A stretch of 64,000 bases of DNA from assembly GCF_053078305.1 (NCBI RefSeq), contig NZ_CP166879.1; one strand, 5' to 3'. Below, piece by piece: positions 4,680 through 64,000 of the stretch. The notes below the pieces were generated by a model. That model searched no databases and was not told the DNA's origin. It worked only from the letters and a program-made list of their open reading frames with translations. A program made the translations under genes and the position numbers. Position 1 is the first letter of the stretch, and each line of letters begins with the position of its first letter.

Positions 4680-4913
4680 ATGCGTGATATTTACCACGAA
4701 ACAATAGACCGCGCATTTAGTGCCCTTGCTTACGCTGAAGGTATGTACGAAATATTGCAAATGTGTCTGGAAACATTTGGCGATAATGAGCGTGATGTAA
4801 AGAAGGCGCGGATTATTAAATCACTGATAACTCTCCTTGAACCTGTAATAACAGAGTTGCAGGAAATAGACTTATTGCACGACAGATATAACGAACAGCA
4901 CACCGGAGAATAA
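4680..4913 (+). CDS. hypothetical protein
   Basis: 77 aa, AGGGGG RBS, tightly packed operon. Confidence 0.45.
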   Translation: MRDIYHETIDRAFSALAYAEGMYEILQMCLETFGDNERDVKKARIIKSLITLLEPVITELQEIDLLHDRYNEQHTGE

Positions 4914-4918
4914 AAATA

Positions 4919-5218
4919 ATGAAACTTAAATATCCTGGCTTAACTGCCAGTGGCAACACTCACCCTAAATTTACGCGCGGTGATATTTACCGCGACCAGT
5001 ACGGCGGCACGGTAATGATTAAGGGCGTGGCGGGACGGTGCGTAACTTACCGCCGTGAAGGCTACGAATATGATTGCGTGATGCCTGTTTATCAGTTCCG
5101 GCGTGATTTTTCTCTGGTACAGACCGCGCCGCATAACGTGCCCACCAGCAACGCCAGGGCACGGGCAAACATCCAGAAGCTGAAAACCATGATTAACGGA
5201 TTCAGGGGTAAAAAATGA
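4919..5218 (+). CDS. hypothetical protein
   Basis: 99 aa, GGAG RBS, stop overlaps next start. Confidence 0.45.
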   Translation: MKLKYPGLTASGNTHPKFTRGDIYRDQYGGTVMIKGVAGRCVTYRREGYEYDCVMPVYQFRRDFSLVQTAPHNVPTSNARARANIQKLKTMINGFRGKK

Positions 5219-6624: not shown

Positions 6625-6830
6625 AAAGTGGGCATTAAAAGTGGGAAAGGTGGGCGATTTAACGTAATTTTAACAAAATCACCCACTTTCCCACGTGTAT
6701 ATATCCCAAAAAGTGGGCACTAAAAAAATACCTATGAAACAAGATGATATAAATCCCAAACTTCCCACGTTGGACGAAGTGGGAAAACGTAAAAAGTGGG
6801 CGAAAAAAGTGGGTAGAGGTGGGCGAATGA
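6625..6830. repeat. iteron array, putative replication origin of the satellite
   Basis: About ten copies of AAGTGGG(C/A) / GGTGGGCGA in both orientations directly downstream of the rep gene. Confidence 0.7.
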
Positions 6831-7078
6831 CTCAAAAACACAGAGACAGAACAGAGCCAAAATATAAAGCGTTAGACATGACAGAGCACGCTTTAAAGGT
6901 GGCAATCAGGGTAATAGACCGCCACACGCGGGAAGGATACGCGAAGGAACATCCCGACCTGATAAGCGCATTCATGACCACAGCGGCGGCAAACTTTGCC
7001 ACGCTGACAGAACGGGAGATAGCCGAAGCGGAACAGGTAACAACCATCAACGTTAAAACCGGAGAGGTGGAATCATGA
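6827..7078 (+). CDS. hypothetical protein
   Basis: 83 aa from ATG at 6827 (upstream part of track ORF lies in the iterons). Confidence 0.45.
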   Translation: MTQKHRDRTEPKYKALDMTEHALKVAIRVIDRHTREGYAKEHPDLISAFMTTAAANFATLTEREIAEAEQVTTINVKTGEVES

Positions 7079-7485
7079 CAGCACAGATAGCCGCTTACGG
7101 GCGGCTGGTGGACGACCCGCAGGTAAAACAAACCAGCAAGGGCACACCGATGACGCTGGCGCGTATGGCGGTATCTCTGCCATGCAGCCAGGCACAGGAC
7201 GGGCAGGCTACGTTATGGCTATCAGTGATGGCATTTGGTAAGCAGGCCGACTTCCTGGCTAAACATCAAAAAGGCGATGTTGCCAGCGTATCCGGCACGA
7301 TGCAGGTAAGCCAGTGGACCAGACAGAACGGGGAAACGCGGCAGGGTTATCAGGTTATTGCAGACAGTGTAATCAGTGCCCGTGCTGCCCGTCCTGGCGG
7401 GAGCAGACGTACAACCACAGGCACACAGGGTAATCAGCCACCAGCGGGAGGCGATGACCCTTACGGTGACGGTATTCCGTTCTGA
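7075..7485 (+). CDS. ssb: single-stranded DNA-binding protein
   Basis: OB-fold pattern and acidic C-terminal tail DDPYGDGIPF typical of SSB. Confidence 0.75.
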   Translation: MTAQIAAYGRLVDDPQVKQTSKGTPMTLARMAVSLPCSQAQDGQATLWLSVMAFGKQADFLAKHQKGDVASVSGTMQVSQWTRQNGETRQGYQVIADSVISARAARPGGSRRTTTGTQGNQPPAGGDDPYGDGIPF

Positions 7486-7495
7486 GGGGGTGACG

Positions 7496-7768
7496 ATGGT
7501 ACATGACCGCATAGCGGAGGAACTCGAGGCAAAAGGCTTTTACCGGAGGGCGGCGGCGCGATGGGGTGAAGTTATGCAGCTGGTGGAGACAGACAAGGAA
7601 CGGCATCAGGTTACGATGCGACGGCTGGAATGTTCCAGGAAGGCACAGAGGCCACCGGAGCCGCCGGATAACTTCGGAGACCTGAAAAAAGCAGTAGATC
7701 GCACTTATGCCGAAATGGGTATGGATGGTGTAAGCGATGAAATATGGCGTAATTACCCAGACAGCTAA
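7496..7768 (+). CDS. PerC-family transcriptional regulator
   Basis: 90 aa; IAEELEAKGFYRRAAARW motif resembles PerC family. Confidence 0.5.
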   Translation: MVHDRIAEELEAKGFYRRAAARWGEVMQLVETDKERHQVTMRRLECSRKAQRPPEPPDNFGDLKKAVDRTYAEMGMDGVSDEIWRNYPDS

Positions 7769-7774
7769 TCAACA

Positions 7775-7796
7775 GCCGGAGAAATCCGGCTTTTTT
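7775..7796 (+). terminator. rho-independent terminator (GCCGGAGAAATCCGGC + T-run)
   Basis: Perfect hairpin then TTTTTT; identical hairpin recurs at 10049-10071. Confidence 0.65.
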
Positions 7797-8007
7797 GTAC
7801 CCAAAAAAAGCCCGATAAGTACAGGAGGCATCTTATCGGGCTTTTGCATATGAGGTTTTTTTGGTGCACTGACACACATGATCGGGGTAATCATTTCATA
7901 ATTTGCAACACAACTCAACATCATTGCACAAAATGCAATCCTGATTATAATCAGAGCTGGATGAACATCCAGTTCTGATTTTTTAAGTCAAAGAGGAATT
8001 TCTTACT

Positions 8008-33604: not shown

Positions 33605-34913
33605 TTTAGGTTATGCCGCCACGCTTCCCTCAAAAGAGGCGGTGGCATACTTCCGCGCCAAAGGGGCGCATATCAGCTGGAACTGGTTCGAAACAGACGC
33701 GGATGTTCATGCCCGTTCATTCACGGCGGCAAAAGTGGCACGCCTGGACGTACTGACCACACTACAGGCGGAAGTGCAGCGTGCTGTTGATGAGGGGATT
33801 TCACAGAAAGCATTTATCCGCACACTGACACCCCGCCTGCAAAAGCTGGGATGGTGGGGAAAGCAGATTGTGGTGGACAGTGCCGGTAACGCGGAAGAAG
33901 TGCAGCTGGGCAGCCCCCGCCGTCTGGCGCTGATTTACAACGTGAACACCCGCGTGGCTTACAATGCCGGGCGTTACACGCAGATGATGAACAACACGGA
34001 CACGCATCCGTTCTGGCAGTATGTAGCGGTGATGGACAGCCGCACCCGCCCGGCGCATTCCGCCCTTAACGGGCTGGTATTCCGCTATGACGATCCGTTC
34101 TGGAATACACACTACCCACCCAATGGCTGGAACTGCCGCTGCCGTGTCCGGCCATTGTCTCAGGCCCGTCTGGATGCAATGGGGTTATCCGTTTCATCCG
34201 GTCAGGATCATCTTTCCACCCGCAATGTTGAGGCTGGCGTGGATAAGCAGACCGGAGAAGTCAGAGAAATGCCGGTGACCACATATTCAGATGGCACCAG
34301 AACCATGACACCGGATGTGGGCTGGTCATATAACCCCGGTTCGGCGGCGTTCGGCACAGACCAGGCGCTGATCCGCAAGCTGATCGAAGTGAAAAGCCCG
34401 GCGTTACGGGAAATGGTGGTTCAGGAGATGAACAACAGCCCGGAGCGGCAGCTGGCGTTCCGCATCTGGGCAAAAAACATCATGAAAACCCGGCGAGGCG
34501 GTAACGATATCCGCACGCTGGGCTTTATGACCGAAAGTATTGCGCAGGCGGTGGAAAGCCGGACGGGAACGCCACCGGCCCGCCTGCTGGCGATGAGCGG
34601 TAAAAATGTGCTCCATGCGGACAGCGTGAAACATCAGAATGACGGTATCGCCCTGACGCCGGAGGATTTCGCGCAGCTTCCCGCCATGCTGGCTTCCCCC
34701 GATGCCGTGCTGTGGGATCATGTCCATCAGAACCTGCTTTACATCACTGAAACCCGTGACGGAACGGCAAAGATTGCCGTCAATGCGCCTTATGGTGTGA
34801 AGCGCCAGCCGGATAAGCTGGATGTGGTAATTAATGCTTACCGGGTAAATAAATTTGATATTGAAAAAGCAATAGAGGGCGGAAAGCTGGAACTACTGGA
34901 AGGTAAATTGTAA
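33588..34913 (+). CDS. head morphogenesis protein, Mu F-like
   Basis: 441 aa; NGWNCRCRV motif typical of F-like minor head proteins. Confidence 0.7.
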   Translation: MAQGIDLGYAATLPSKEAVAYFRAKGAHISWNWFETDADVHARSFTAAKVARLDVLTTLQAEVQRAVDEGISQKAFIRTLTPRLQKLGWWGKQIVVDSAGNAEEVQLGSPRRLALIYNVNTRVAYNAGRYTQMMNNTDTHPFWQYVAVMDSRTRPAHSALNGLVFRYDDPFWNTHYPPNGWNCRCRVRPLSQARLDAMGLSVSSGQDHLSTRNVEAGVDKQTGEVREMPVTTYSDGTRTMTPDVGWSYNPGSAAFGTDQALIRKLIEVKSPALREMVVQEMNNSPERQLAFRIWAKNIMKTRRGGNDIRTLGFMTESIAQAVESRTGTPPARLLAMSGKNVLHADSVKHQNDGIALTPEDFAQLPAMLASPDAVLWDHVHQNLLYITETRDGTAKIAVNAPYGVKRQPDKLDVVINAYRVNKFDIEKAIEGGKLELLEGKL

Positions 34914-35031
34914 GCCGGTGACGGGGGTCGAACCCGCATAAACATATGACCCCTGAGGGTTTATGCCGCTTTACCAGTTAAGAGTACACCGGCCTGTATT
35001 TATTTTAATCAGATAGTTTTAAGGAGGCAAC

Positions 35032-48582: not shown

Positions 48583-49130
48583 CCCTGACCCCGCATCAGC
48601 GCGCCCTGTTGCAGTTGCTGCCTGACGGGCTGGCATGGGATAAGCGGCCGTCATCCGTTCTTGCAGCTTTGTGCCTGGGCCTCAGTCATTCCACGGAGCG
48701 TGTTTCCTGGACCGGTAACCAGATGCTGGCAGAACGTTTTCCTGATTCATCCCGTCTGCTGCTGGAAGACTGGGAGCGTTATCTGGGGTTGCCGGAATGT
48801 GATATGACCGGCGCAACCATTCAGGAACGTCAGCGTTATGCCGGGAATAAATACCGGATGAAACCCTCTCTTAACCGTGAATTTTATATCCGGTTTGCGG
48901 CTGAGTTTGGTTATGAAATAGATATCCAGCCATCACCGGAATCACAATGGATCAGTATTGTGACAGTGAAGACGGCGGTGGGATACCGTCACATGAATGT
49001 ACTGGACGATATTCTTACACCACTGCGAATTTATGATGCAAGTGCGCTGGAGTGCATTTTAAACCGTTATAAGCCAGCCTGGCAGACGTTTTTATATCTG
49101 TACGAAAACAGTCATGAGGAGACGGAGTAA
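48573..49130 (+). CDS. tail protein (Mu gp48-like)
   Basis: 185 aa. Confidence 0.55.
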   Translation: MAVTLTPHQRALLQLLPDGLAWDKRPSSVLAALCLGLSHSTERVSWTGNQMLAERFPDSSRLLLEDWERYLGLPECDMTGATIQERQRYAGNKYRMKPSLNREFYIRFAAEFGYEIDIQPSPESQWISIVTVKTAVGYRHMNVLDDILTPLRIYDASALECILNRYKPAWQTFLYLYENSHEETE

Positions 49131-50017
49131 TGTATTTTGTCGACAACAATTCAGGTGTGACCGATATGCCACCACTGGCCCCCTCTCAGGGTACGCAGGT
49201 TAAATGGTTTACTGAAGGTGACGGACGCAAAGGGATCAGCCATATCGGTCAGGACTGGCTGAACATCGTGCAGGCAGAGCTGCTTGCCATTCTGACAGAA
49301 GGAAAGGTTCAGCCGGATAAGGCAAAACTGAACCAGCTGGTGACAGCCATTAAGGCAATCATTGCAGCAAACGCATACAGCCGGAAAAACAACCTTAAGG
49401 AGATTGCGGATGCAGGTGCAGAAGCACAGGCTGCTGCCCGCCGTCATCTGGGGCTGGGAGGATTATCAGGAAAAGACAGTCTGGCTGCTGCTGATGTGGG
49501 AGCACTGGAGAAATCCCGGAATTTTGACGATGTACCGGATAAACCGACGGCCCGCCTGAATCTTGATGTTTACAGTAAGGGAGAAGGCGATGAGCGTTAT
49601 CTGCGCAGGGACCAGAATGGCGCGGATATCCCGGACAAAGGAACCTTTATCGATAACCTCGGTTTACGGGAAACGGTAAATAAGGCTGCTGATGCCCTGC
49701 CATCGGGTGGAACCGCCGTGGCAGCGAATAAACTCGCCACCCCAGTAAATATTAATGGCGTTCCTTTCGACGGAACGCAGGATATCAATATTACATCGGG
49801 GATGACGCAGTCTGTGGCTGACTCACGTTATGTTCAAAGCATTCGAAGAGGTTCAAGGTCAACGATTGGAATGCAATATAATATTTTTGAAGTTCCTGAC
49901 GGATGCGTACTTACAGGGCTTGATGTCGCTGGTGATGGTAATGCAACGGTAACCGCATATTATCGCCCTGTTCAGTTTCTGATAAATGGTTCGTGGAAAA
50001 CAGCTTCCAGCGCATAA
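49130..50017 (+). CDS. tail fibre protein S (constant part plus variable part Sv in current orientation)
   Basis: 295 aa; C-terminal third lies inside the invertible segment. Confidence 0.75.
   Translation: MYFVDNNSGVTDMPPLAPSQGTQVKWFTEGDGRKGISHIGQDWLNIVQAELLAILTEGKVQPDKAKLNQLVTAIKAIIAANAYSRKNNLKEIADAGAEAQAAARRHLGLGGLSGKDSLAAADVGALEKSRNFDDVPDKPTARLNLDVYSKGEGDERYLRRDQNGADIPDKGTFIDNLGLRETVNKAADALPSGGTAVAANKLATPVNINGVPFDGTQDINITSGMTQSVADSRYVQSIRRGSRSTIGMQYNIFEVPDGCVLTGLDVAGDGNATVTAYYRPVQFLINGSWKTASSA
49655..49788. repeat. left inverted repeat of invertible tail-fibre segment (134 bp)
   Basis: Reverse-complement identical to 50906-51039 by manual comparison. Confidence 0.8.
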
Positions 50018-50096
50018 AAGTGCAGTAGTTCAAAAAACAGATTATCTGAATAAATATATGATGATTTTGTCTTTTCAACAAAAACAAGGTGAAATA

Positions 50097-50618
50097 ATGG
50101 AGCTTATTAACGTAAAACGATATTACCCGGAACACAAACCCTATGGTGAGGATGTTCAGTATTTCCAGAGTGAGGACGGAAGGGATTTTTATGAATCTCT
50201 CCCGCTTTTCACAAAGAAATACAAACTCTGTATTTCGCCTGTAACGGGTATTATCTGCTCTGTTGCTGAAGATGTCTCTGCTTTATATCCGGCAGGTTTT
50301 ACTGTTGTTGAAGTGGACGAACTGCCGGAAGGTGTGGATATTGACGGTAACTGGCAGTTTTCTGATGGCCTGATATCAAAGGTGCCGGTAAACTGGAAGA
50401 CGGTTGCTGAAAAGCGCCGCTCATCGCTGCTCCAGGAAGCCAACGAAACTGTGGATGACTGGAAAACGGAATTAAAACTGGACATGATTAGCGATGAAAA
50501 TAAATTACAGCTGACGCGCTGGATGGCGTATATCCGACAGCTTAAAGAAATGCACTTTAATGATATTGCCAGTGAGGGGCATTACCAGGCGATTCCCTGG
50601 CCGGAAAAACCGGAATAA
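50097..50618 (+). CDS. tail fibre assembly protein (U-like)
   Basis: 174 aa from ATG at 50097; inside invertible segment. Confidence 0.7.
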   Translation: MELINVKRYYPEHKPYGEDVQYFQSEDGRDFYESLPLFTKKYKLCISPVTGIICSVAEDVSALYPAGFTVVEVDELPEGVDIDGNWQFSDGLISKVPVNWKTVAEKRRSSLLQEANETVDDWKTELKLDMISDENKLQLTRWMAYIRQLKEMHFNDIASEGHYQAIPWPEKPE

Positions 50619-50652
50619 TTCAGAGGGTGCATTCAGCACCCTTTTCTGTGGT

Positions 50653-50976
50653 TTACACTGAACTTACCGTTCTCCAGGCATTATTAATATAAATCTGAAC
50701 CGGGCGATAATAGACCCCACCGATATTGTCCGCAGACCGGGAGCCGGTTTCCTGCACGTTAATACCGGAAAGCATACAACCGGAAGGTGCGCTGTAATTC
50801 CATGACATTTCATTGCCTCCGGGTGAATGATAGCTCTGTGCTCCAAGCTGAACATTCTGTACATACCGGCCATCTGCGGTTGACTGCGTCATTCCTGACG
50901 TGATGTTGATATCCTGCGTTCCGTCGAAAGGAACGCCATTAATATTTACTGGGGTGGCGAGTTTATTCGCTGCCAC
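50653..50976 (-). CDS. alternative tail-fibre C-terminal cassette (Sv'), promoterless in current orientation
   Basis: Minus-strand ORF homologous to S C-terminus (ANKLATPVNINGVPFDGTQDINITSGMTQS...). Confidence 0.7.
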   Translation of the reverse strand: MAANKLATPVNINGVPFDGTQDINITSGMTQSTADGRYVQNVQLGAQSYHSPGGNEMSWNYSAPSGCMLSGINVQETGSRSADNIGGVYYRPVQIYINNAWRTVSSV

Positions 50977-51039
50977 GGCGGTTCCACCCGATGGCAGGGC
51001 ATCAGCAGCCTTATTTACCGTTTCCCGTAAACCGAGGTT
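50906..51039. repeat. right inverted repeat of invertible segment (134 bp)
   Basis: Partner of 49655-49788. Confidence 0.8.
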
Positions 51040-51101
51040 TCAGGGATGTCGTATATCTGCTTTAAAAGGCATTTTCACCTCTTTTTAAGGAAGGTAAATA
51101 C

Positions 51102-51662
51102 ATGCTGATTGGCTATATACGCGTATCAACAAATGACCAGAACACAGGTTTACAAAGAAATGCGCTGGAATGTGCAGGATGTAAGCTGATTTTTGAAGAT
51201 AAAATGAGCGGAAAAACAACGCAGCGGCCGGGACTGAAGCGGGCACTGAAGAAACTAAAACCCGGTGACACGCTGATGGTCTGGAAACTGGACAGGCTGG
51301 GGCGCAGTATGCGCCACCTTGTTGCGCTGACAGATGAATTACAGCAACAGGGGATAAATTTTCGTAGTCTTACTGACAACATTGATACGTCAACCCCCAT
51401 GGGGCGCTTCTTTTTTCACATAATGGGTGCGCTGGCAGAAATGGAGCGTGAATTGATTGTCGAACGGACACGGGCTGGTCTTGCAGCTGCCCGTGAAAGG
51501 GGACGAACCGGTGGCAGACCCCGTCGTCTCACGCAGGAACAATACGAGCAGGTCGGGCGTTTACTGGCCGGGGGTGTCAGCCGAAGACAGGTGGCACTTA
51601 TTTTTGATATCGGCCTTTCAACCCTTTATCGTTATTATCCTGCAAGCATTTCGGAAAAATAA
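51102..51662 (+). CDS. gin: serine recombinase, Gin/Hin/Pin-family DNA invertase
   Basis: MLIGYIRVSTNDQ catalytic N-terminus, C-terminal HTH; adjacent to inverted repeats. Confidence 0.9.
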   Translation: MLIGYIRVSTNDQNTGLQRNALECAGCKLIFEDKMSGKTTQRPGLKRALKKLKPGDTLMVWKLDRLGRSMRHLVALTDELQQQGINFRSLTDNIDTSTPMGRFFFHIMGALAEMERELIVERTRAGLAAARERGRTGGRPRRLTQEQYEQVGRLLAGGVSRRQVALIFDIGLSTLYRYYPASISEK

Positions 51663-51752
51663 GACGCTCCCTTTGTTGGGCCTTTACTGAATTAACGCAA
51701 AATGGCGTTTATCGGTCTGTGGATATGATAATTCTGTTTATTCAGGAACAGG

Positions 51753-53810
51753 ATGAATATTATGACGTCCAAATGGGTTCAACTATCATCAATGCCCGGA
51801 AACTTTACCGTTAAAGTTTCCGGTGGTACAGCGGCATTTCTTGAGGCTCCTTTTCCTCCGGCTGAAACGAAAGGAGGAATGACATTTGCTGACTGTCTCA
51901 TCAGTTTTAATACACAGGATTGCCTGTGGGTAAGGCCAGTATCCGGTGATCCGAACGTGGAAATTACCGGAGCGGGTATTGGTGCTGTCATTCCGTTAAG
52001 TGCTGATGTTGCCGGTACTACTGAACCGTCAGACTGGGATAATGCTGAAACACATACCCGTCCGGCAGGAAATGAAACGGCTTCCAGCTCCCCTTCCTGG
52101 TATTACGTGATTGTTATAGCCGGTCAGTCCAATGCTTCATCTTATGGTGAAGGGTTGCCCCTGCCGGATTCTTATGATCGTCCTGATCCACGTATTATGC
52201 AGCTGGCACGCAGGAATACACAAACCCCCGGAGGTATTCCCTGCAAATACAATGAAATCATTCCAGCAGATCACTGCCTTCATGATGTTCAGAATATGAG
52301 TCTGCTGAACCATCCAAAAGCAGACCTGAAAAAAGGGCAGTATGGTTGTGTGGGTCAGGGACTTCATATTGCGAAAAAAGTATTACCGGTGATTCCTGCT
52401 GATGCCGGGATTTTACTGGTTCCCTGTGCCCGTGGCGGCTCTGCTTTTACAACCGGCGCAGTTGGCTCATTCGATCCGGCAAGTGGTGCAGCCGAGGCGT
52501 CACTACGCTGGGGAGTGGATACCCCACTGTATCAGGATCTTGTCAGTCGAACGAAAGCGGCACTTGAGGCGAATCCAAAGAATGTGCTGTTATCTGTCGT
52601 ATGGATTCAGGGGGAAGGAGACCTTAAAGCGACCCCGGCCCAGCATGGTGCCCAGTTTACTGCGATGGTGAAAAAATTCCGTGCGGATCTTGGTGCTTTC
52701 TCCGGTCAGTGTATTGGTGGTTCATCAGACAGTGTGCCGTGGTTATGTGGTGACACAACCTATGACTGGAAAGAGAAGAACCCGGCGGCATATGAAACCA
52801 TTTATAGCGGATATAAAAACCGGGCTTCCGAGAACATTCACTTTGTTCCACTGATGCACGATGAGTTCGGTAATAAAACCGCGACCAACCTGCCGGAGCA
52901 CGACCCGGATATCGCTTCTGCCGGGTATTATGGTGCGGAATCACGGGGAGATGGCAACTGGACAACAGCATCCAGGGCAACCCATTTTAGCTCCTGGGCG
53001 CGCCGTTTTCTGGTCTCAGATCGTTTTGCATCAGCAATTCTTAAATATGCAGGTCTGACCTCTGCATTTATTGCCGGTGTGGCCCCTGATGGTGAAGCCC
53101 TGCCTCAGCCCGCGCCGGGTGGAAAACCGGAAGCTCCGACAGGTAGTCAGCCAGGAAGCAGTGAGTCCCCCCAGCCGACATCCCCGTCACTCCGTACGCT
53201 GCTTTCACTTAAAGCATCAGCAGGGGAAGCCCCGGCTCAGGGATGGAAAATTACAGATGGTACAATCCAGCTGACGGACGAAGGTAAAGCGCTGACCGTA
53301 TCCAAACAAAGCGGAAAAACCTGGTCACTTACCCATGCGACCAGTGCTGCCGGAGAGCTGTTGCAGCATGGTGGTCAGTTGACCTGTAAATTCCGTCTGT
53401 CAGGTGAAGTAAAAGAAGGCCAGTTTGCTCTGGGTATTTACCTCCACACCGATACGGTCCCGGAAGGTGTAACCATGAGTGGTACAGGCACACCGTTCCT
53501 GATGGCGTATTATCTCCAGACAACAGGCGGCCAGTTAAATCTGATGCACCATAAAACAGGGGGGAATACGAAACTGGGATCATTTGGAGCCTACAATAAC
53601 CAGTGGCATACACTTGTCCTGAAGTTTACGGCGGGAAGTGCCCAGGTAACGCCTGTGCTGGATGGCACTCCGGGCCAGGCATTCCAGATGGTGAAAGATG
53701 CACTTTCCCCTGCCAAAGATACGCTGACACTGACAGATGTCACCAAAGGGGCAACTTATGGCGTGTCTTTTGAGAGCGTTGTCCTTGAGGTTAATACCCC
53801 TGCGGCATAA
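51753..53810 (+). CDS. NanS-p-like sialate O-acetylesterase (SASA-type esterase with lectin-like C-terminal domain), tentative
   Basis: 685 aa; GQSNASSYGEG esterase motif; cargo position between gin and com/mom. Confidence 0.5.
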   Translation: MNIMTSKWVQLSSMPGNFTVKVSGGTAAFLEAPFPPAETKGGMTFADCLISFNTQDCLWVRPVSGDPNVEITGAGIGAVIPLSADVAGTTEPSDWDNAETHTRPAGNETASSSPSWYYVIVIAGQSNASSYGEGLPLPDSYDRPDPRIMQLARRNTQTPGGIPCKYNEIIPADHCLHDVQNMSLLNHPKADLKKGQYGCVGQGLHIAKKVLPVIPADAGILLVPCARGGSAFTTGAVGSFDPASGAAEASLRWGVDTPLYQDLVSRTKAALEANPKNVLLSVVWIQGEGDLKATPAQHGAQFTAMVKKFRADLGAFSGQCIGGSSDSVPWLCGDTTYDWKEKNPAAYETIYSGYKNRASENIHFVPLMHDEFGNKTATNLPEHDPDIASAGYYGAESRGDGNWTTASRATHFSSWARRFLVSDRFASAILKYAGLTSAFIAGVAPDGEALPQPAPGGKPEAPTGSQPGSSESPQPTSPSLRTLLSLKASAGEAPAQGWKITDGTIQLTDEGKALTVSKQSGKTWSLTHATSAAGELLQHGGQLTCKFRLSGEVKEGQFALGIYLHTDTVPEGVTMSGTGTPFLMAYYLQTTGGQLNLMHHKTGGNTKLGSFGAYNNQWHTLVLKFTAGSAQVTPVLDGTPGQAFQMVKDALSPAKDTLTLTDVTKGATYGVSFESVVLEVNTPAA

Positions 53811-54603: not shown

Positions 54604-55258
54604 TTGCCCGAATTACATCAGAAAAGCACGCGTTCCATAATTGCATAGCTGATGAATCACCAGCTGTATGAAAAGAGGTAAAGACACAACTGGTGGATGT
54701 CATTGCTGCAATTGTGATATCAGCTGCAATTCGCGCAGCCTGTAACTTTTGGTCGGTGGTCAGTTTATCCATTTTCTCCTGCCTGAACAGATGCATCTCT
54801 GCTTTACAGGAGGCCGGGGAATATCATAGGATACACCACGAGCTCAGAGTGAAGCATTGATGCAGTTTTTTACAGATTGACCCAGAATAGTTCGCGCTAT
54901 CTGAGTCGCCATTTATGTAGTCCCGAAGTAAAGCATTGATGCAAACTTGTCTAAATCGGCCCAGCATAGTTCCAGCTATGCTGGGTTTCCCTTTTATGTA
55001 GTATCCTGTTGATTTGAAACATACTACATATACGCGCGATCCTACCTTCACTGGATAAAAAGTCAATAAAATGATCATTTTATGATCGTTTTCACCACCT
55101 AACTCTTCGTTTTCTTTAAGTAAATAATCACCGCCCTGAATCATTGTTGATGACTTTTCAATCTATTTGTTGTATCAATTAAACAAATCGAATCGATCGT
55201 TTTTGTCGATCGATTGCATGAGAAAGGCATCAACAACAAAGCAGGAGGTTATGCGGCC

Positions 55259-55459
55259 ATGTATCGAAACATACGGTGCCGACACTGCAATAAGCTACTG
55301 GCACGGGCCAGTTTCAGTTATCTGGAAGTAAAATGTCCGCGCTGTAAAACCCTCAATCAAATCACATCTCCGAGCGCCACAGAGCACCCCACATACACAA
55401 GGAAATCCTGTCGTGGGGAACAGAAAGCAAGTCACATCCCGTATCATCAGCACGCCTGA
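55259..55459 (+). CDS. com: Com zinc-finger translational activator of mom
   Basis: CRHCNKLL...CPRCK zinc finger; overlaps start of mom. Confidence 0.75.
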
Positions 55460-56150
55460 ACTTATTCGCTATAACGACAATATCGTTGGTTATGGTTCCC
55501 GTGAGTTGCGGGTTGAGACAATAAGTTGCTGGCTGGCCAGACTGGTTATCGTCAATAAACATTACAGCCACCGTTTCGTAAATAACTCCTACCTTCATCT
55601 GGGCATATTTTCAGAACGGGAACTTGTTGGCGTAATGCAATGGGGTTACGCCCTTAACCCAAACAGTGGTGCACGCGTCGTAACGGGTACGCAGAACCGA
55701 GAATATATGGAGCTGAACCGGCTATGGATGCATGACTGTATGCCGAGAAACTCCGAATCAAGGGCAATCAGTTACGCGCTCAAGCTAATCAGGCAGCTTT
55801 ATCCGCAGGTACAGTGGGTTCAGTCGTTTGCAGATGAGCGTTGTGGCTGTCTTGGTGTCGTGTATCAGGCAAGCAATTTTGATTATGTAGGCAGCCATGA
55901 AACAATATTCTATGAACTTGATGGCGAGTGGTATCACGAGATTTGCAGGAATGCCATTAAACGAGGCGGACAACGAGGTGAACATCTGAGGGCTAATATC
56001 GACAGAGCCAGTGTGCATAAGTTCCGACAGTTTCGTTACATCCGGTTTCTGAACAAGAGGGCCAGAAAACGCCTCAACACAAAGCTATTCAAAGTCCAGC
56101 CTTACCCAAAACCACAAACAGTTAAAACTGGTTTGAAAGAGAGTGAATGA
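55413..56150 (+). CDS. mom: DNA modification protein Mom
   Basis: 245 aa at extreme right end after com, as in Mu. Confidence 0.7.
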
Positions 56151-56277
56151 GCGCTTAAAAACTCATTCTAAAACTCAAAAGAAAAGCGCCGATTTAGTAT
56201 CAAATAAGTTGCGTATCGGCGTTTTTCAGCGGTATCAAATGAAATGCAAATCGGTATCAAAAAAATCGCCGCGCTAT

Positions 56278-56391
56278 ATGCCGCTGACCACAGCATTTAA
56301 ACAGAATATTGAACGTATCCGGCGTGAACGCCTGCCAGAAGAACTGGCATATGCGCTGAAACAACAACTGAGGATTGCGATAAAACGATGA
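56278..56391 (+). pseudogene. Z: tail protein Z, downstream part resuming after Mu-like insertion
   Basis: [36 protein letters not shown] matches remembered lambda Z C-terminus. Confidence 0.8.
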
Positions 56392-56783
56392 AACATACTG
56401 ATATCCGTGCAGCCGTACTGGATGCACTGGAGAAGCATGACACCGGGGCGACGCTGTTTGATGGTCGCCCCGCTGTTTTTGAGGAGGCGGATTTTCCGGC
56501 GGTCGCGGTTTATCTGACGGATGCAGAGTATACCGGTGAAGAGCTGGATGCTGATACCTGGCGGGCCACACTGCATATTGAGGTGTTTTTACCGGCACAG
56601 GTACCGGATTCAGAGCTTGATCAGTGGATGGAAAGCCGGATTTACCCGGCGATGGCGGCGATCCCTGCACTGGCAGGCATGATTACCACGATGGTTACGC
56701 AGGGCTATGAGTATCGTCGTGATGACGATATGGCATTGTGGAGCTCTGCAGATCTGACTTATTCCATTACATACGAGATGTGA
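56388..56783 (+). CDS. U: tail terminator protein U
   Basis: 131 aa; near-identical to remembered lambda U. Confidence 0.9.
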
Positions 56784-56790
56784 GGATGAT

Positions 56791-57540
56791 ATGGCAACAC
56801 CAAATCCCCTGGCGCCGGTAAAAGGTTCCGGCACCACGCTCTGGGTTTACACCGGTAAGGGCGATGCTTATGCAAACCCGCTGTCAGATGATGAGTGGAC
56901 GCGTCTGGCAAAAATAAAGGATCTGACCCCCGGCGAGATGACGGCGGAATCCTACGACGATAACTATCTGGATGATGAGGATGCTGACTGGGTATCCACC
57001 GGGCAGGGGCAGAAATCTGCCGGTGACACCAGTTTTACGCTGGCCTGGAAGCCCGGCGAGAAAGGGCAGCGTGATTTGATTGCCTGGTTTGACAGCAGTG
57101 AGACCCGGGCCTACAAAATCCGCTTCCCGAACGGTACGGTGGATGTGTTCCGTGGCTGGGTGAGCGCCATTGGTAAAGCGGTGACTGCCAAAGAAGTGAT
57201 TACCCGTACGGTAAAAATCACCAATATTGGTCGTCCGTCGCTGGCGGAGGATCGGGGAGAAATCACACCGGTCACCGGTATTACCGTGACGCCACTAACG
57301 GGGAATGTGGCAAAAGGTCAGAGCACCACCCTGACTGTGGCCGTTCAGCCGGAAGGCGCAACGGATAAAACATTCCGCGCAACGTCGGCAAATCAGAATT
57401 TCGCCACCATTACCGTGAAAGGGAACACGATCACCGTGAAAGGTGTTGCGGCAGGTAAAGCGCAGATCCCTGTTGTCACCGGCAACGGTGAGTTTGCGGC
57501 GGTGGCGGAGATCACCGTTACGGATGGCGCTGCGGGCTGA
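56791..57540 (+). CDS. V: major tail protein V
   Basis: 249 aa with C-terminal Ig-like domain; matches remembered lambda V. Confidence 0.9.
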
Positions 57541-57556
57541 GGGGAGGAGATCAAGC

Positions 57557-57979
57557 ATGTTCCTGAAAACAGAACAATTTGAATATAACGGTGTGTCCGT
57601 CACGCTGTCGGAACTGTCCGCGCTGCAGCGGTTTGATTATATAAAGTTTGTTTCAGACGCAGCACAACAGGAGACAACGGAGCATGATGCCGTGCACATT
57701 AACCAGCGATATCTGGAAACGGCATCCCTGCTTGTGGCGATGTCGCTATGGCATTCCCATTCCCTCAAAGGCACTCTGGCCTCTCCGGAGACAGAGATGC
57801 AGCAGATCCGCCGTGAAGTGATGCTGGGATGGCCTGCTGATGCACTGAATCAGGCAACGAACCGGGTGCTTTATCTTTCAGGTATGCTGGATAACCGGCA
57901 CGATGCCGATCCTGAACAAACCGGGAAAGCAGAAGCGACTGAGCCGGTAACATCAAAAAAGCATTCGAAGGCGAGCTGA
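57557..57979 (+). CDS. G: tail assembly chaperone G
   Basis: 140 aa; MFLKTEQFEYNGVSVTLSELSALQR matches remembered lambda G. Confidence 0.85.
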   Translation: MFLKTEQFEYNGVSVTLSELSALQRFDYIKFVSDAAQQETTEHDAVHINQRYLETASLLVAMSLWHSHSLKGTLASPETEMQQIRREVMLGWPADALNQATNRVLYLSGMLDNRHDADPEQTGKAEATEPVTSKKHSKAS

Positions 57980-58419
57980 ACTTTGTCCTGAAACTGGCGC
58001 GTGAGATGGGGAGAGCCGACTGGCGCGCCATGCTTGCCGGGATGACATCCACCGAATATGCCGACTGGCGACGTTTTTACTGCACGCATTATTTTCAGGA
58101 TACCCAACTGGACGCTCATTTTTCCGGGCTGATGTACGCCGTACTCAGCCTGTTTTTTGGCGATCCGGATATGCATCCGGCGGATTTCAGTCTGCTTGCT
58201 CCAGCGTGTGAGGAAGAGCAGACGGAGATGCCGGACGAGGAAGAAATGCTGATGCAGAAAGCGACAGGAGTTGCCGGAGGCGTCCGGTTCGGAGGGGACG
58301 GGGGACGCGATATTTCACCTTCTGCGGATGTGGTGGATGTCAGCGAGGATGATGTTGCATTAATGATGGCTTCAGCGGGGATTTCCGGAGGTGTGAGATA
58401 TGTCCCAGCCAGCGGGTGA
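57557..58419 (+). CDS. T: tail assembly protein G-T fusion made by -1 programmed frameshift (slippery A AAA AAG at 57955-57961)
   Basis: -1 frame opens at 57943 and runs to 58419; heptamer near end of G. Confidence 0.65.
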
Positions 58420-61012
58420 TCTGGTTATTGATTTGAGTCTGGATGCGGCCCGGTTTGATGAACAGATGGCCCGGGTACGCCGTCATTTTTCCAGTCTGGA
58501 GGCGGATGCCAGAAAAACCGCCAGTACTGTTGAACAGGGGCTGAGCCGACAGGCGCTGGCTGCACAAAAAGCCGGGATATCAGTCGGACAGTATAAGGCT
58601 GCCATGCGCACACTGCCCGCACAGTTCACGGATATTGTCACTCAGCTTGCCGGTGGTCAGAATCCCTTCCTTATCATGCTGCAGCAGGGGGGGCAGATCA
58701 GCGATTCATTCGGTGGACCGCTCAGCCTGCTTACCCTGCTGAAGGAGGAACTTCTCGGGATCAGGGATGCCTCTGAATCATCAGAGGATTCGCTGTCAGA
58801 TACGGCAAATGCTCTGGCTGAAAATGCCCGGAATGCCGGTGAACTGGGACGATTTATGTCGGTGGCCCGTGTGGCGGCAGGTGGCGGGGTTGCCGTACTG
58901 GCCGCGCTTGCTGCTGCCGCCTGGCAGGCAGAGCAGGCTGACCGGGCCTTATTGCGTTCACTGACCCTGACCGGAGGGGCGGCTGCCACCACAACGGCCG
59001 AATTGTGGAAAATGGCCGGGGTGATCAGCGATGAAGCCGGTGGTGGTATCAGACAGGCGGCAGAAAATCTGGCCCGTCTGGCAGAAAGCGGGAAATATAC
59101 CGCCGGGCAGCTACGGATCATGGGGGAAACCTCTCAGAGATGGCTGCAGACGGTGGGGGACGATGCCGGGAAGGTGGAAAAAGCCTTTGAAGGGATTGCA
59201 GCAGATCCGGTGAAGGCGCTGGCCTCCCTGAATCAGCAGTATAACTTCCTGAGCGTTTCCCAGTTACGCCATATTGATGAGCTTGAGCGCACGAAAGGTA
59301 AACAGGCTGCGGTGACGGAGGCGATGTCCCTGTTTGCGGATGTTATGAATGCACGTCTGGAGCAACTTGATAAAGCGGCCACGCCGGTGGAAAAAATCTG
59401 GGACGATGTTAAAACCTGGACTTCTGACGCATGGGCATGGATAGGTGATCATACACTGGGGGCACTCAGTCTGATCACTGACGTGGTGGCAGGAACCGTT
59501 GAACAGGTGAAGCTGCTGCTTGTGCAGGGGGATCTGGCGCTGGCTGAATTTATTCAGTCAGCCTGGGAAACGACAAAGAATGTGCCCGGCGTTGGTGCGT
59601 TGTTTGGTGAACTGGCAGAAGAGAACCGCGTATTTATTGAGAAAACAAAACGCGATGAACTGGCGCTGAGAAAATCCATTGCGGAACGGGATGCGCGTAT
59701 ACGCCAGGGGGAAATGGGGTACATCAACCGTTCGCGTGCAACAGGCGTCAGCAAAGGTCCGGGGCAGCAGGAAGCCGTCAGCCGTCTGGCTGAAGAGCTG
59801 ACAGGTAAAAAGCATACATCACCGAAAACGCGCTCTGCCGGGGAGAGGGAAGAGGAGCAGGCAAGAGAGGCTCTGCTTGCCCTTGAAGCTGAACTCAGGA
59901 CGCTGGAAAAACACAGCGGTGCGAATGAGAAAATCAGCCGGCAACGCCGTGATTTATGGAAGGCGGAAAGTCAGTATGCGGTCCTGAAAGAGGCTGCCAC
60001 GAAACGACAGTTATCCGGGCAGGAAAAATCCCTGCTGGCCCATGAGAAAGAGACGCTGGAGTACAAACGCCAGCTGGCTGAGCTGGGCGACAAGGTTGAA
60101 TACCAGAAACGCCTGAATGAGCTGGCACAGCAGGCGGCACGGTTTGAAGAGCAGCAGAGCGCGAAGCAGGCCGCCATCAGCGCAAAAGCCCGTGGTCTCA
60201 CTGACCGTCAGGCGCAGCGGGAGTCTGAAGCGCAGCGTCTTCGTGACGTGTATGGCGATAATCCGCAGGCGCTGGCACAGGTCACCGGGGCACTGAAACA
60301 GACATGGGCGGATGAAGACATGCTGCGCGGTGACTGGCTGGCCGGGCTGAAGTCCGGCTGGGGCGAGTGGGCAGAAAGTGCGACGGACAGTTTTTCGCAG
60401 GTTAAAAGTGCTGCCACGCAGACCTTTGACGGTATTGCGCAGAATATGGCGGCGATGCTGACCGGTGCAGAGGCAGACTGGCGGGGATTCACCCGTTCGG
60501 TGCTGTCCATGATGACAGAAATCCTGCTTAAACAGGCCATGGTGGGAATTGTCGGGCGTATCGGCAGTGCCATTGGTGGTGCTTTCGGTGGTGGTGCATC
60601 TGCTTCCTCGGGGACGGCCATTGAGGCTGCGGCGGCGAACTTCCATTTCGCGACCGGAGGATTTACGGGGACGGGCGGCAAATATGAGCCTGCGGGGATA
60701 GTTCACCGCGGGGAGTTTGTTTTCACGAAAGAGGCAACCAGCCGGATAGGTGTGGGGAATCTTTACCGTCTGATGCGCGGGTATGCGGAAGGTGGTTATG
60801 TGGGTGCTGCCGGAAGTCCGGCGCAGATGCGGCGGGCGGAAGGTATTAATTTTAATCAGAACAATCACGTGGTGATTCAGAACGACGGTATCAACGGACA
60901 GGCGGGGCCGCAGCTGATGAAGGCGGTGTATGACATGGCCCGTAAGGGGGCGCAGGATGAACTCCGGCTGCAGTTACGTGATGGCGGTATGTTATCAGGG
61001 AGCGGGCGATGA
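58400..61012 (+). CDS. H: tail tape measure protein H
   Basis: 870 aa; extensive similarity to remembered lambda H. Confidence 0.9.
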   Translation: MSQPAGDLVIDLSLDAARFDEQMARVRRHFSSLEADARKTASTVEQGLSRQALAAQKAGISVGQYKAAMRTLPAQFTDIVTQLAGGQNPFLIMLQQGGQISDSFGGPLSLLTLLKEELLGIRDASESSEDSLSDTANALAENARNAGELGRFMSVARVAAGGGVAVLAALAAAAWQAEQADRALLRSLTLTGGAAATTTAELWKMAGVISDEAGGGIRQAAENLARLAESGKYTAGQLRIMGETSQRWLQTVGDDAGKVEKAFEGIAADPVKALASLNQQYNFLSVSQLRHIDELERTKGKQAAVTEAMSLFADVMNARLEQLDKAATPVEKIWDDVKTWTSDAWAWIGDHTLGALSLITDVVAGTVEQVKLLLVQGDLALAEFIQSAWETTKNVPGVGALFGELAEENRVFIEKTKRDELALRKSIAERDARIRQGEMGYINRSRATGVSKGPGQQEAVSRLAEELTGKKHTSPKTRSAGEREEEQAREALLALEAELRTLEKHSGANEKISRQRRDLWKAESQYAVLKEAATKRQLSGQEKSLLAHEKETLEYKRQLAELGDKVEYQKRLNELAQQAARFEEQQSAKQAAISAKARGLTDRQAQRESEAQRLRDVYGDNPQALAQVTGALKQTWADEDMLRGDWLAGLKSGWGEWAESATDSFSQVKSAATQTFDGIAQNMAAMLTGAEADWRGFTRSVLSMMTEILLKQAMVGIVGRIGSAIGGAFGGGASASSGTAIEAAAANFHFATGGFTGTGGKYEPAGIVHRGEFVFTKEATSRIGVGNLYRLMRGYAEGGYVGAAGSPAQMRRAEGINFNQNNHVVIQNDGINGQAGPQLMKAVYDMARKGAQDELRLQLRDGGMLSGSGR

Positions 61013-61338
61013 AAACCTTTCGCTGGAAAGTGAAGCCGGATATGGAGGTGAACTCGCAGCCGTCGGTGCGTGAAGTGCGTTTTGGTGACGGGTACTCACA
61101 GCGTATGGCGGCAGGGCTGAATGCTGACCTGAAAACATACCGGGTGATGCTTTCCGTGACCCGGGAGGAGGCCCGGCATCTGGAAGCGTTCCTGGCAGAG
61201 CACGGGGGCTGGAAGGCATTTTTGTGGAAGCCACCCTATGCATACCGGCAGATAAAGGTGACCTGTGCCGGGTGGTCTGCGCGGGTCGGGATGCTGCGCG
61301 TTGAGTTCAGCGCGGAGTTTAAGCAGGTGGTGAACTGA
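61009..61338 (+). CDS. M: minor tail protein M
   Basis: 109 aa, lambda M-like. Confidence 0.9.
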   Translation: MKTFRWKVKPDMEVNSQPSVREVRFGDGYSQRMAAGLNADLKTYRVMLSVTREEARHLEAFLAEHGGWKAFLWKPPYAYRQIKVTCAGWSARVGMLRVEFSAEFKQVVN

Positions 61339-62036
61339 TGCAGGATATTCACGAAGAAACTCTTAACGAGTCGGTTAAGTCAGAGCAGTCACCGCGGGTG
61401 GTGCTCTGGGAAATCGACCTGACGGCGCAGGGCGGTGAGCGGTATTTTTTCTGCAATGAGCTGAATGAAAAAGGGGAGCCGGTGACCTGGCAGGGGCGTG
61501 AATATCAGGCGTACCCGATTGAGGGCAGCGGCTTTGAGATGAACGGAAAGGGCAGCAGTGCCCGCCCGTCGCTGACAGTGTCCAATCTTTTTGGGCTGGT
61601 CACCGGGATGGCGGAGGATTTGCAGAGCCTGGTGGGTGCCACGGTGGTCCGCCGCCGGGTGTATGCGCGTTTTCTGGATGCGGTGAATTTTGTGGCAGGC
61701 AATCCGGAGGCAGACCCTGAGCAGGAGCTGATGGACCGGTGGGTGGTGGAGCAGATGTCAGCGCTGACGGCCATGACGGCCTCGTTTGTGCTGGCGACAC
61801 CGACGGAGACGGACGGTGCGCTGTTTCCCGGTCGCATCATGCTGGCGAACACCTGTATGTGGGATTACCGGGGCGATGAATGCGGGTATAACGGTCCGGC
61901 AGTGGCGGATGAGTTCGACAACCCCACCACGGATATCCGGAAGGACAGATGCAGTAAATGCATGCGCGGGTGTGAGATGCGCGGCATGGTGGCTAATTTC
62001 GGCGGTTTCCTTTCCATTAATAAACTTTCGCAGTAA
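61338..62036 (+). CDS. L: minor tail protein L
   Basis: 232 aa, lambda L-like. Confidence 0.9.
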   Translation: MQDIHEETLNESVKSEQSPRVVLWEIDLTAQGGERYFFCNELNEKGEPVTWQGREYQAYPIEGSGFEMNGKGSSARPSLTVSNLFGLVTGMAEDLQSLVGATVVRRRVYARFLDAVNFVAGNPEADPEQELMDRWVVEQMSALTAMTASFVLATPTETDGALFPGRIMLANTCMWDYRGDECGYNGPAVADEFDNPTTDIRKDRCSKCMRGCEMRGMVANFGGFLSINKLSQ

Positions 62037-62044
62037 ATCCCGTT

Positions 62045-62790
62045 TTATGACACAGACTGAATCAGCGATTCTGGCGCATGCCCGGCGGTGTGCGCCAGCG
62101 GAGTCGTGCGGCTTCGTGATAAGCACCCCGGAGGGCGAACGGTACCAGCCCTGCGTGAATATCTCCGCAGAGCCGGAGGCGTATTTTCGTATTGCACCGG
62201 AAGACTGGCTGCGGGCAGATATGCAGGGGGAGATTGTGGCGCTGGTCCACAGTCATCCCGGTGGTCTGCCCTGGCTGAGCGAGGCGGACCGGCGGCTGCA
62301 GATAAAGAGTGCCCTGCCCTGGTGGCTGGTCTGCCGGGGCGACATTCACCGGTTCCGCTGTGTGCCGCACCTGACCGGACGGCGCTTTGAACACGGTGTG
62401 ACGGACTGTTACAGCCTGTTCCGGGATGCATACCATCTGGCGGGGATAACGCTGCCGGATTTTGTGCGTGAGGATGACTGGTGGCGCAACGGCCAGAACC
62501 TGTACCTGGACAACCTGGCGGACAACGGCTTTTACCGGGTGTCTCCGTCCTGTGCACAGGCGGGCGATATCCTGCTGTGCTGCTTTGGTTCATCGGTGCC
62601 GAATCATGCCGCCATTTACTGTGGCAACGGTGAACTGCTTCACCATATACCTGAACAACTGAGTAAACGGGAGAGGTATTCTGAAAAATGGCAACGACGA
62701 ACGCATTCTGTCTGGCGTCACCGCCACTGGTCCGTATCTGCCTTCACGGGGATTTACAACGATTTGGTCGCCGCATCAGCCTGTATGTGA
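62045..62790 (+). CDS. K: tail assembly protein K
   Basis: 248 aa; ATG at 62045; synteny between L and I. Confidence 0.8.
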
Positions 62791-63368
62791 ACACGGCAGC
62801 GGAGGCCATACGTGCCCTGTCACTGCAGGTGCCGGGATTCCGCGGTCAGATGAACGAAGGCTGGTACCGGATACGTATTGCCGGTGAGGATACCGCGCCG
62901 GAGGCGGTGTATGCCCGTCTTCACGAACAACTGGGTGAGGGAGCGGTCATCCACATTGTACCGCGACTGGCCGGAGCCGGGGGAAATGGTGTTTTTCAGG
63001 TGGTGCTGGGGGCAGCAGCCATCGTGGGCTCTTTCTTCACAGCCGGTGCAACGATGGCGTTGTGGGGCGCAGCCCTGAGTGCCGGAGGGCTGACTGCCAC
63101 CACGATGCTGTTCTCACTGGGTGCCAGCATGATACTGGGTGGTGTGGCTCAGATGCTGGCCCCGAAGGCAAAGACGCCGGAGTACAAAAGTACGGATAAC
63201 GGTAAACAGAACACGTATTTTTCGTCACTGGACAACATGATTGCCCAGGGTAACCCGATGCCGGTACCTTACGGTGAAATGCTGGTTGGTTCACGACGGA
63301 TATCCCAGGACATTAGCACCCGTGATGAGGGCGGAGACGGGAAAGTGGTGGTTATCGGACGGGGATAA
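62688..63368 (+). CDS. I: tail assembly protein I
   Basis: 226 aa; ICLHGDLQRFGRRI...GNGVFQVVLGAAAI matches remembered lambda I; overlaps K. Confidence 0.85.
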   Translation: MATTNAFCLASPPLVRICLHGDLQRFGRRISLYVNTAAEAIRALSLQVPGFRGQMNEGWYRIRIAGEDTAPEAVYARLHEQLGEGAVIHIVPRLAGAGGNGVFQVVLGAAAIVGSFFTAGATMALWGAALSAGGLTATTMLFSLGASMILGGVAQMLAPKAKTPEYKSTDNGKQNTYFSSLDNMIAQGNPMPVPYGEMLVGSRRISQDISTRDEGGDGKVVVIGRG

Positions 63369-63608
63369 AAATAAAAAAATCCCGCAGAGTTAGTGGAGCT
63401 GCGGGAAATAACGATGAAGATTAATGTTATGGAGTTATTTTTTTGGGCAGAAAAACAGTAACGCAGCGTCATTATAGCGGCTACAGGCAATTGCCGGAAA
63501 TGTGAAGAATTTCAGAAATTTTATTCCGTCATGACACAGGCACCCTCCGGGGTGCCTGTTGTTTTTGGGCATAAACAGATTCAGACATCAGACAGGAGAG
63601 GGGGACAG

Positions 63609-64000
63609 AGTGGGTAAAGGGGGCGGCAAGGGGCACACACCGCGTGAGGCGAAGGACAATCTCAAATCCACGCAGATGATGAGCGTGATTGATGCCATTG
63701 GTGAGGGACCGGTGGAAGGTCCGGTGAAGGGACTGCAGAGTATTCTGGTGAACAAAACCCCGCTGACGGACACGGACGGTAATCCCGTGATACACGGTGT
63801 GACCGCCGTCTGGCGCGCCGGGGAGCAGGAGCAGACACCGCCGGAAGGCTTTGAGTCCTCCGGGGCAGAAACCGCACTGGGCGTGGAGGTGACGAAGGCA
63901 AAGCCGGTGACGCGCACCATCACGTCAGCGAACATTGACCGTCTGCGGGTCACCTTCGGGGTGCAGTCACTGGTGGAGACCACCTCAAAGGGTGACCGTA
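63609..64000 (+). CDS. J: tail tip/host specificity protein J, 5' part (runs off window)
   Basis: GTG start; KGHTPREAKDNLKSTQ...GEQEQTPPEGFESSG matches remembered lambda J N-terminus. Confidence 0.85.

Follow-up and report, generated by a model that had tools for sequence, protein, structure and literature searches.

One chaperone gene and two alternative fibre tips in the invertible segment of an Sp18-type Mu-like prophage of Escherichia coli

The element under study is an invertible tail fibre segment (49655-51039) in a stretch of 64,000 nucleotides from contig NZ_CP166879.1 (RefSeq assembly GCF_053078305.1), the whole of which is termed the window here. The segment lies in a Mu-like prophage and joins the constant 5′ part (Sc) of the fibre gene S to one of two alternative tip-coding cassettes: Sv, which specifies tip A, in the orientation present in the window, and Sv′, which specifies tip C, when flipped. 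That the element is a Gin-like inversion switch is almost certain. Invertible fibre segments are a textbook means of bet-hedging in phage host range and, in the accepted picture, each tip travels with its own chaperone. The switch described here is of this known kind, already is present in hundreds of public genomes and has been noted before as invertible. It is Gin-type by mechanism, but lacks the paired chaperones of the classical G, C, and P segments: a single tail fibre assembly (tfa) chaperone gene follows tip A and is on the strand opposite to tip C. Among the explanations weighed below, a switch served by one shared Tfa protein is preferred, with a probability that is judged to be slightly better than even.

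The inversion switch

The two arms that bound the segment are exact reverse complements over 134 nt (Table 1), a match that excludes a chance origin. Identity ends exactly at the outer ends of the arms, with no extension outward, and continues imperfectly inward over 182 nt at 91% or 158 nt at 96.8%. Measured from one outer end to the other, the segment is 1,385 bp long. It excludes the constant 5′ part of S and contains the two alternative 3′ parts on opposite strands, both in frame with the constant part to give proteins of 295 aa (tip A) and 303 aa (tip C): flipping of 49655-51039 in silico produced an uninterrupted 303-aa fibre ending in tip C. The stop codons of tfa and Sv′ are only 34 nt apart, and a GC-rich hairpin is present between them. 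The stem of the hairpin is kept in relatives whereas the loop is variable, and a different hairpin occupies the same place in Citrobacter rodentium. The structure is predicted to be a terminator, likely for both orientations. Overall, the open reading frames (ORFs) and repeats bear out an earlier note on this DNA which had proposed an invertible fibre segment with Sv and tfa on one strand and Sv′ on the other, followed immediately by a Gin-type invertase gene. The range assigned in that note, 49655-51662, covers the segment, but also takes in the invertase gene which sits outside the invertible DNA.

The invertase shares 134 identical residues with Mu Gin (about 70% identity) and matches the Gin crystal structures PDB 3UJ3/4M6F with E=8e-90. 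The domains of small serine recombinases (PF00239 and PF02796) were detected on near-identical relatives of the protein. The catalytic core of Gin, Ser9 included, is preserved in full, which disposes of the inactive, serine-mutated enzyme that the earlier note had raised as a possible objection. Two inverted sites of 26 bp are located at the outer repeat edges, both with a central TC dinucleotide (49659-49660 and 51034-51035). As in Mu, the inner half-sites of the pair are identical and the outer half-sites differ. Both sites aligned with the Mu gix sequence, TTATCCAAAACC-TC-GGTTTACAGGAA, and the inner half-site together with the next eight bases, ACGGTAAA, is common to the window sites and the Mu 34-bp repeat. 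The crossover also falls at a homologous point in the fibre, which reads IDNLGLRETVN in the window and IQNLGLQETVN in Mu. The likeness to the Mu G segment thus extends from the layout, in which the constant 5′ part of S is outside, the alternative 3′ ends are inside on opposite strands and the invertase gene is adjacent, to the conserved gix core and the bases that follow it, the invertase itself, and the homologous N-terminus and tip domains of the fibre. The Fis-dependent recombinational enhancer of Mu acts in cis from the 5′ part of the invertase gene. Matches to the Fis consensus were found at +70 and +93, at the same offsets in the window invertase gene and in Mu gin; consensus matches of this sort are weak evidence, and the inversion may depend on Fis and an enhancer. 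In the proposed mechanism, the invertase would pair the two gix-like sites and exchange strands at the central TC dinucleotides, thereby inverting ~1.38 kb and fusing the constant part of the fibre either to tip A, as in the window, or to tip C. Whichever the orientation, the hairpin between tfa and Sv′ would terminate the late transcript.

Inversion in nature was assessed by using a 2,101-bp query, either as in the window or with 49655-51039 flipped, and by counting the complete E. coli genomes in which no less than 80% of the query was matched colinearly. The window form was present in 20 genomes and the flipped form in 160, numbers that are inflated by clonal O157 genomes and do not represent an equilibrium ratio. 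The eight-fold excess of the flipped, tip C form could reflect O157 clonal descent. Alternatively, most lysogens could have been founded by tip C particles, which would imply that the orientation without a linked chaperone is infectious. In prophages of the B/C type, the tfa-linked form itself is very common.

Two of the loci that were compared, L002 and L013, are the same O157:H7 prophage in opposite orientations, and the fibre frame is intact in both. These copies share identical WP accessions for baseplate V, GP46, baseplate J, YmfQ, Tfa and the invertase, and their flanks are 98.6% identical. A private G in the left outer sequence (AACG-TC) is joined to the tip A arm in one O157 strain and to the tip C arm in the other; therefore, exchange occurred within the gix core. 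The segment also is flipped in the record of an Stx2c phage with an inserted Mu-like phage, and protein clusters are abundant both for the fused form with tip C (303 aa) and for that with tip B (298 aa). The earlier note had made its proposal contingent on evidence for the inverted orientation in sequencing reads. Near-identical prophages with both orientations provide natural replicates in place of such reads, and they establish inversion with a junction in the core for the prophage family, that is, in relatives of the genome under study.

In the O157 copies the private G creates a mismatch that adjoins the crossover dinucleotide, as the left site reads AACG-TC and the right site AACC-TC (L002 at 3450 and L013 at 3096). 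A similar change was proposed in the SfMu paper to block inversion. Both orientations nevertheless occur among O157 strains.

One chaperone gene for two tips

Searches of the full 64 kb by tblastn with four proteins (the Tfa protein of the window, Mu U, Mu U′ and a Tfa protein of a Hafnia phage) produced matches at 50097-50615 only. A second chaperone elsewhere in the window therefore was rejected as a candidate, and the single chaperone to which the earlier note had drawn attention, in distinction to the Mu G segment, was upheld. An antisense gene within tfa also was rejected as a counterpart of U′, as the open frame of 130 codons shrinks to 67 in diverged alleles. The one Tfa protein matches chain B of PDB 5YVQ (E=1.9e-15), contains the PF02413 domain and is 28-30% identical to Mu U and U′. 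Thus, an assembly gene of its own behind each fibre end, as in the S-U and S′-U′ pairs, is not found here.

The same arrangement of three ORFs, in which a tip, spacer and tfa are separated by a hairpin from a tip on the opposite strand, was found in diverged E. coli prophages, in a metagenome contig and in C. rodentium. Tfa alleles in this family are as little as 62% identical, both orientations occur, and at least six tip types are represented of which A, B, D, and F are linked to tfa and C and E are unlinked. No locus was confirmed when Tfa peptide patterns were used to scan the representative genomes of GTDB. The expectation in the earlier note that the Sv′ orientation would be expressed without a downstream chaperone accordingly holds for the gene order, but the arrangement is a conserved design of the prophage family and not an accident of this genome. 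Two more distant loci in Salmonella-type Mu-like prophages (L018 and L019) also possess one chaperone which is of a different family (DUF4376); therefore, fewer chaperones than tips is a recurrent feature of the group. The L018 locus (4500-7800 of a Logan contig from SRR11004916) has three gix-like sites at about 5318, 7339, and 7708, and three tips with one chaperone in which a Tfa-like N-terminus is combined with DUF4376. The locus looks like a multi-cassette version of the one-chaperone design, and is comparable to Min of p15B and to shufflons in which several alternative 3′ ends are behind one constant part, whereas the window has two sites and two cassettes only.

The classical systems differ in this respect. 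The C segment of P1 (Cin), the P segment of e14 (Pin), and the H/G inversion of Fels-2 belong to the same class of serine invertase fibre switches. In Mu, Fels-2 and e14 there is one chaperone per tip, positioned 0-2 nt after the fibre stop codon, with tfaP/tfaE in e14 and G/G′ in Fels-2 as the pairs; P1 likewise has one chaperone per tip. The Mu G segment is 3 kb with four genes (S-U and U′-S′), a chaperone gene 2 nt after the fibre end and repeats of 34 bp, in contrast to 1.4 kb, three ORFs, one tfa gene after a 79-nt spacer and arms of 134 bp (182 nt if imperfect) in the window. No discussion of the one-chaperone design or of the question that it poses was found in the literature searched.

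Tip C has the properties of a functional protein. When diverged alleles were compared, the variable part of tip C showed dN/dS values of 0.06-0.14 at dS of 0.75-1.9, and the value for tfa was 0.12. Therefore, tip C is a maintained protein and not a relic. Every tip falls in the family of the Mu S tip, for which PDB 5YVQ shows the complex with the Mu chaperone U; an alignment to that tip was obtained for tip C as well, and its match to the tip of the short fibre of phiTE was stronger. Pairwise identity among tips A, B, and C is 42-45%, a divergence close to that of the S and S′ tips of Mu (47%). Tfa alleles of 97% identity or more accompany both tip A (the window, L001 and L002) and tip B (L005), even though tips A and B are 42% identical and so no closer to each other than either is to tip C. 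Conversely, tip A also is paired with a Tfa protein that is only 69% identical (L007). In sliding comparisons, three modules were seen to exchange independently: Sv with the spacer, tfa with the hairpin, and Sv′. Among alleles of Tfa, the N-terminal fibre-binding half is conserved (74-78% identical) and the C-terminal half is diverged (47-60%); the roles of the domains are summarized in PMC9608196.

Partners of C-like tips in other phages also were informative. The nearest Tfa protein outside the family, that of phage Rac-SA53, is 53% identical and its gene is ~10-20 nt downstream of a fibre gene whose tip is 64% identical to tip C. In CR8-type phages, tfa is directly after C-like tips. In P2-like phages, C-like tips were detected on H fibres by tblastn against phages, and the following tfa gene was deduced from gene order. 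When the 82-aa tip C was used as the query of a word-based search of proteins, only fragments of the same family were returned. As judged from these comparisons, compatibility of Tfa with tip C appears well supported, although short of proof, and Tfa may fold tip C.

Expression of tfa and competing explanations

When the segment is flipped, the fibre gene acquires tip C and tfa is antisense to the late operon. In the preferred explanation, the single Tfa protein would act as a generalist chaperone for both tips and would be made regardless of orientation, most likely from its own, probably activator-dependent promoter that travels with the segment and for which the non-coding spacer between Sv and tfa is a candidate site. 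Whether a shared Tfa is made in both orientations is judged an even call. The broader proposal that the chaperone has been uncoupled from the tip cassettes, such that one generalist Tfa with its own promoter in either orientation folds every incoming tip, is put forward tentatively and is rated somewhat below even. If true, it would account for the independent exchange of Sv plus spacer, tfa, and Sv′ between prophages, as well as for two or three tips with one chaperone in related prophages.

The spacer is the sole physical hint of independent expression. Its length is 79 nt in the window and 51-121 nt in relatives, each with its own Shine-Dalgarno sequence, compared to gaps between fibre and chaperone genes of 2 nt in Mu, 8 nt in Hafnia phage yong1, and none in Fels-2 where the genes abut. 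The AT-rich spacer upstream of tfa accordingly might be regarded as a candidate location for a promoter.

Several observations weigh against the preferred explanation. Scans of three spacer types with the sigma-70 consensus detected no sense promoter upstream of tfa, and the matches were not above those in shuffled sequences. At three loci the spacer, arms and invertase leader yielded no sigma-70 promoter suitably placed to drive tfa, and this possibility was rejected. No Mu-type C box (TTAT-N6-ATAA) was found across the window, and comparison by eye of spacers A, B, D, and F with the candidate late-promoter gaps of the window revealed no convincing common motif. In L019, which has the same one-chaperone layout, the chaperone gene begins 4 nt after the fibre stop codon and there is no spacer. 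Finally, the evidence for inversion derives from related prophages and not from this genome, in which the 134-bp perfect repeats also could be inverted by RecA. Such scans would miss an activator-dependent promoter that has no -35 element, of the kind that drives late genes in Mu.

The failure to find a promoter for orientation-independent expression of tfa is in keeping with the alternative that best survives, namely that tip C has no need of the resident chaperone, either because it folds unaided or because it borrows the Tfa protein of another prophage, while tips A, B, D, and F depend on tfa. The gene is always co-directional with a cassette of the A, B, D or F type and never with one of the C or E type, and in Mu-like prophages of the Salmonella type the layout with one chaperone is seen again, there with a chaperone of an unrelated family and, in one case, with three tips. 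It also is general background that the Tfa protein of one phage can take the place of that of another. However, tfa follows C-like tips in the other phages examined, directly in Rac-SA53 and CR8 and by inference in P2-like phages, tip C is a member of a family that was solved bound to its chaperone, and the window contains no other tfa gene. Independence of tip C is considered a real but minority prospect. In either case, a widespread prophage family of pathogenic E. coli and C. rodentium maintains two functional tips with one chaperone, which implies either a generalist chaperone that is independent of orientation or a self-folding tip from a family that normally is chaperone-dependent. Both answers bear on the engineering of phage and tailocin host range by tip swapping, in which it matters which tips need which helper.

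The divergence of the C-terminal half of Tfa, set against conservation of the N-terminal fibre-binding half, and the conserved asymmetry of the layout are compatible with a second alternative in which Tfa itself is a determinant of host range. Mu Tfa reportedly stays bound as a cap or adhesin. If Tfa remained in this way on tips A and B, the switch would alternate between a capped tip and a bare tip C. This alternative is improbable: tip C still would need to be folded, and the closest Tfa protein outside the family partners a C-like tip.

Two chaperones in the classical relatives Mu, Fels-2 and e14, and in P1 as is generally known, might indicate that a four-gene segment lost its second chaperone by decay, leaving the Sv′ orientation defective in the fibre and the switch as an on/off device. 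The strong purifying selection on tip C, the retention of the layout across two genera and across alleles with saturated synonymous divergence, and the tip C orientation in most complete E. coli genomes all are contrary to decay. Moreover, tfa is on the opposite strand from Sv′ and simple deletion of U′ cannot give this arrangement. Decay is thus regarded as very improbable.

The length of the repeats has a separate explanation. The long perfect repeat is peculiar to this genome. Over their first 134 nt, the two arms of eight relatives match at just 75-90% and share perfectly only a core of ~17-26 bp; therefore, the recombinase does not require such length. The earlier note was correct that the repeats are much longer than a minimal crossover site, but the length is not a property of the recombination system, whose 26-bp crossover sites are at the outer edges. 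Instead, each arm is the 5′ part of a tip cassette, homologous between the two cassettes, and encodes the conserved stretch NLGLRETVN...NINGVPFDGTQDIN. Similarly, the long repeats of P1 are shared coding sequence with crossover sites at the outer ends. The tip C arm of several close relatives is the better match to both window arms (93-96% in L002, L005, L013, and L014); identity with the tip A arm of the same loci is lower (72-87%). The tip A arm therefore appears to have undergone gene conversion by the tip C arm, the likeliest history of the 134-bp perfection. One side effect of the perfect repeat is that RecA also could invert this copy. Perfect identity over 134 bp is enough for RecA and shows that the arms have recombined, but relatives with arms of 75-90% identity invert with the exchange located in the gix core, and the window retains an intact invertase and two intact sites, so that homologous recombination in place of the invertase as the driver of inversion in this genome has scant probability.

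Prophage setting and neighbouring features

Sequence and gene order identify the element with the host-specificity region of Sp18-type Mu-like prophages of E. coli, whose invertibility was noted for O157 Sakai in 2009. Genes for a Mu-type transposase and B are at about 18-21 kb of the window. The gp44-48 baseplate genes are directly upstream of S, the segment is at the end of the Mu-like late operon, and S, tfa, the invertase gene and a SASA/DUF6645 gene follow in the order of Sp18-type relatives. Prophage and flanking DNA are 98-99% identical to genomes of Shiga-toxin-producing E. coli, which identifies the host as E. coli. Sp18 of E. coli O157:H7 Sakai has the same element, and the copies of the segment in O157 and further Shiga-toxin-producing strains of E. 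coli are 93-97% identical to that of the window. The window differs from O157-type copies in its perfectly homogenized 134-bp arms, which are 82-87% identical in the latter, and in a gixL site without the C-to-G change that adjoins the crossover dinucleotide. Features of the segment are compiled in Table 1.

Table 1. Features of the fibre segment and invertase gene in window coordinates.
Feature	Coordinates	Strand	Evidence
Tail fibre gene S, present orientation (constant part Sc + tip cassette A)	49130..50017	+	295-aa ORF; phrog_1833 tail fibre, E=5e-121
Left crossover site, gixL-like, 26 bp, TTATCGATAACC-TC-GGTTTACGGGAA	49647..49672	.	Mu gix alignment; core kept in all relatives
Left arm, perfect 134-bp inverted repeat; codes for common fibre stretch NLGLRETVNKAADALPSGGTAVAANKLATPVNINGVPFDGTQDIN	49655..49788	.	
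Diverged part of cassette A: receptor-binding tip A + stop codon	49789..50017	+	
AT-rich non-coding spacer, 79 nt, Sv stop to tfa start; Shine-Dalgarno AAGGTG before ATG	50018..50096	+	
tfa, tail fibre assembly (chaperone) gene, 173 aa	50097..50618	+	PF02413 Caudo_TAP, E=1.4e-18; phrog_136; PDB 5YVQ chain B (Mu U)
GC-rich hairpin GGGTGC-loop-GCACCC with flanking A/T runs, between convergent tfa and Sv′ stops	50622..50644	.	
Silent cassette Sv′ (tip C), without own start	50653..51039	-	After inversion in frame with Sc, giving 303-aa fibre
Right arm, perfect 134-bp inverted repeat	50906..51039	.	
Right crossover site, gixR-like, - strand reading ATCCCTGAAACC-TC-GGTTTACGGGAA	51022..51047	.	Central dinucleotide 51034-51035
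Gin/Pin-type serine DNA invertase, 186 aa, Ser9 in YIRVSTNDQ	51102..51662	+	phrog_125; Mu Gin; PDB 3UJ3/4M6F

The fibre of the window is a shortened form of Mu S. Residues 1-198 aligned with residues 1-191 of Mu S and the tip at 230-295, the last 66 or so residues, aligned with the Mu S tip at 436-504 of PDB 5YVQ, whereas the Mu S shaft of roughly 240 residues is absent, which makes the window protein about 200 aa shorter. The invertase gene is followed at 51753-53810 (+ strand), where Mu has com-mom, by a gene for a 685-aa protein with SASA and DUF6645 domains. The protein is sialate O-acetylesterase-like with a GQSN motif, belongs to phrog_143 (function unassigned), and its position is kept in all relatives. 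The gene is preceded by the dyad AACGC-N6-GCGTT and a GATAAT hexamer.

A search for known RNA elements in 49500-51800 found none. Elsewhere, an intergenic gap in the late region of the prophage (34913-34993, - strand) contains a tRNA-like sequence with an Rfam tRNA score of 31.4 bits (gathering score 29; E=2e-4), despite which ARAGORN reported zero tRNA genes in the whole window.

The Mu-like prophage (about 17200-54600) seemingly is beside or inside a lambdoid prophage, as suggested by a tape-measure gene and a tail assembly T gene at 58400-61000, within the 55000-64000 part of the window. Two Stx-phage records likewise contain an inserted Mu-like phage.

The orientation of the segment also influences automatic annotation. 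In RefSeq, the intact gene for the 295-aa fibre was missed in the window orientation (L002, 2926-3813) and a 67-aa 'tail fiber protein' fragment was called, whereas the fibre is annotated at full length in the flipped form. Automatic calls thus miss the full-length fibre in one orientation.

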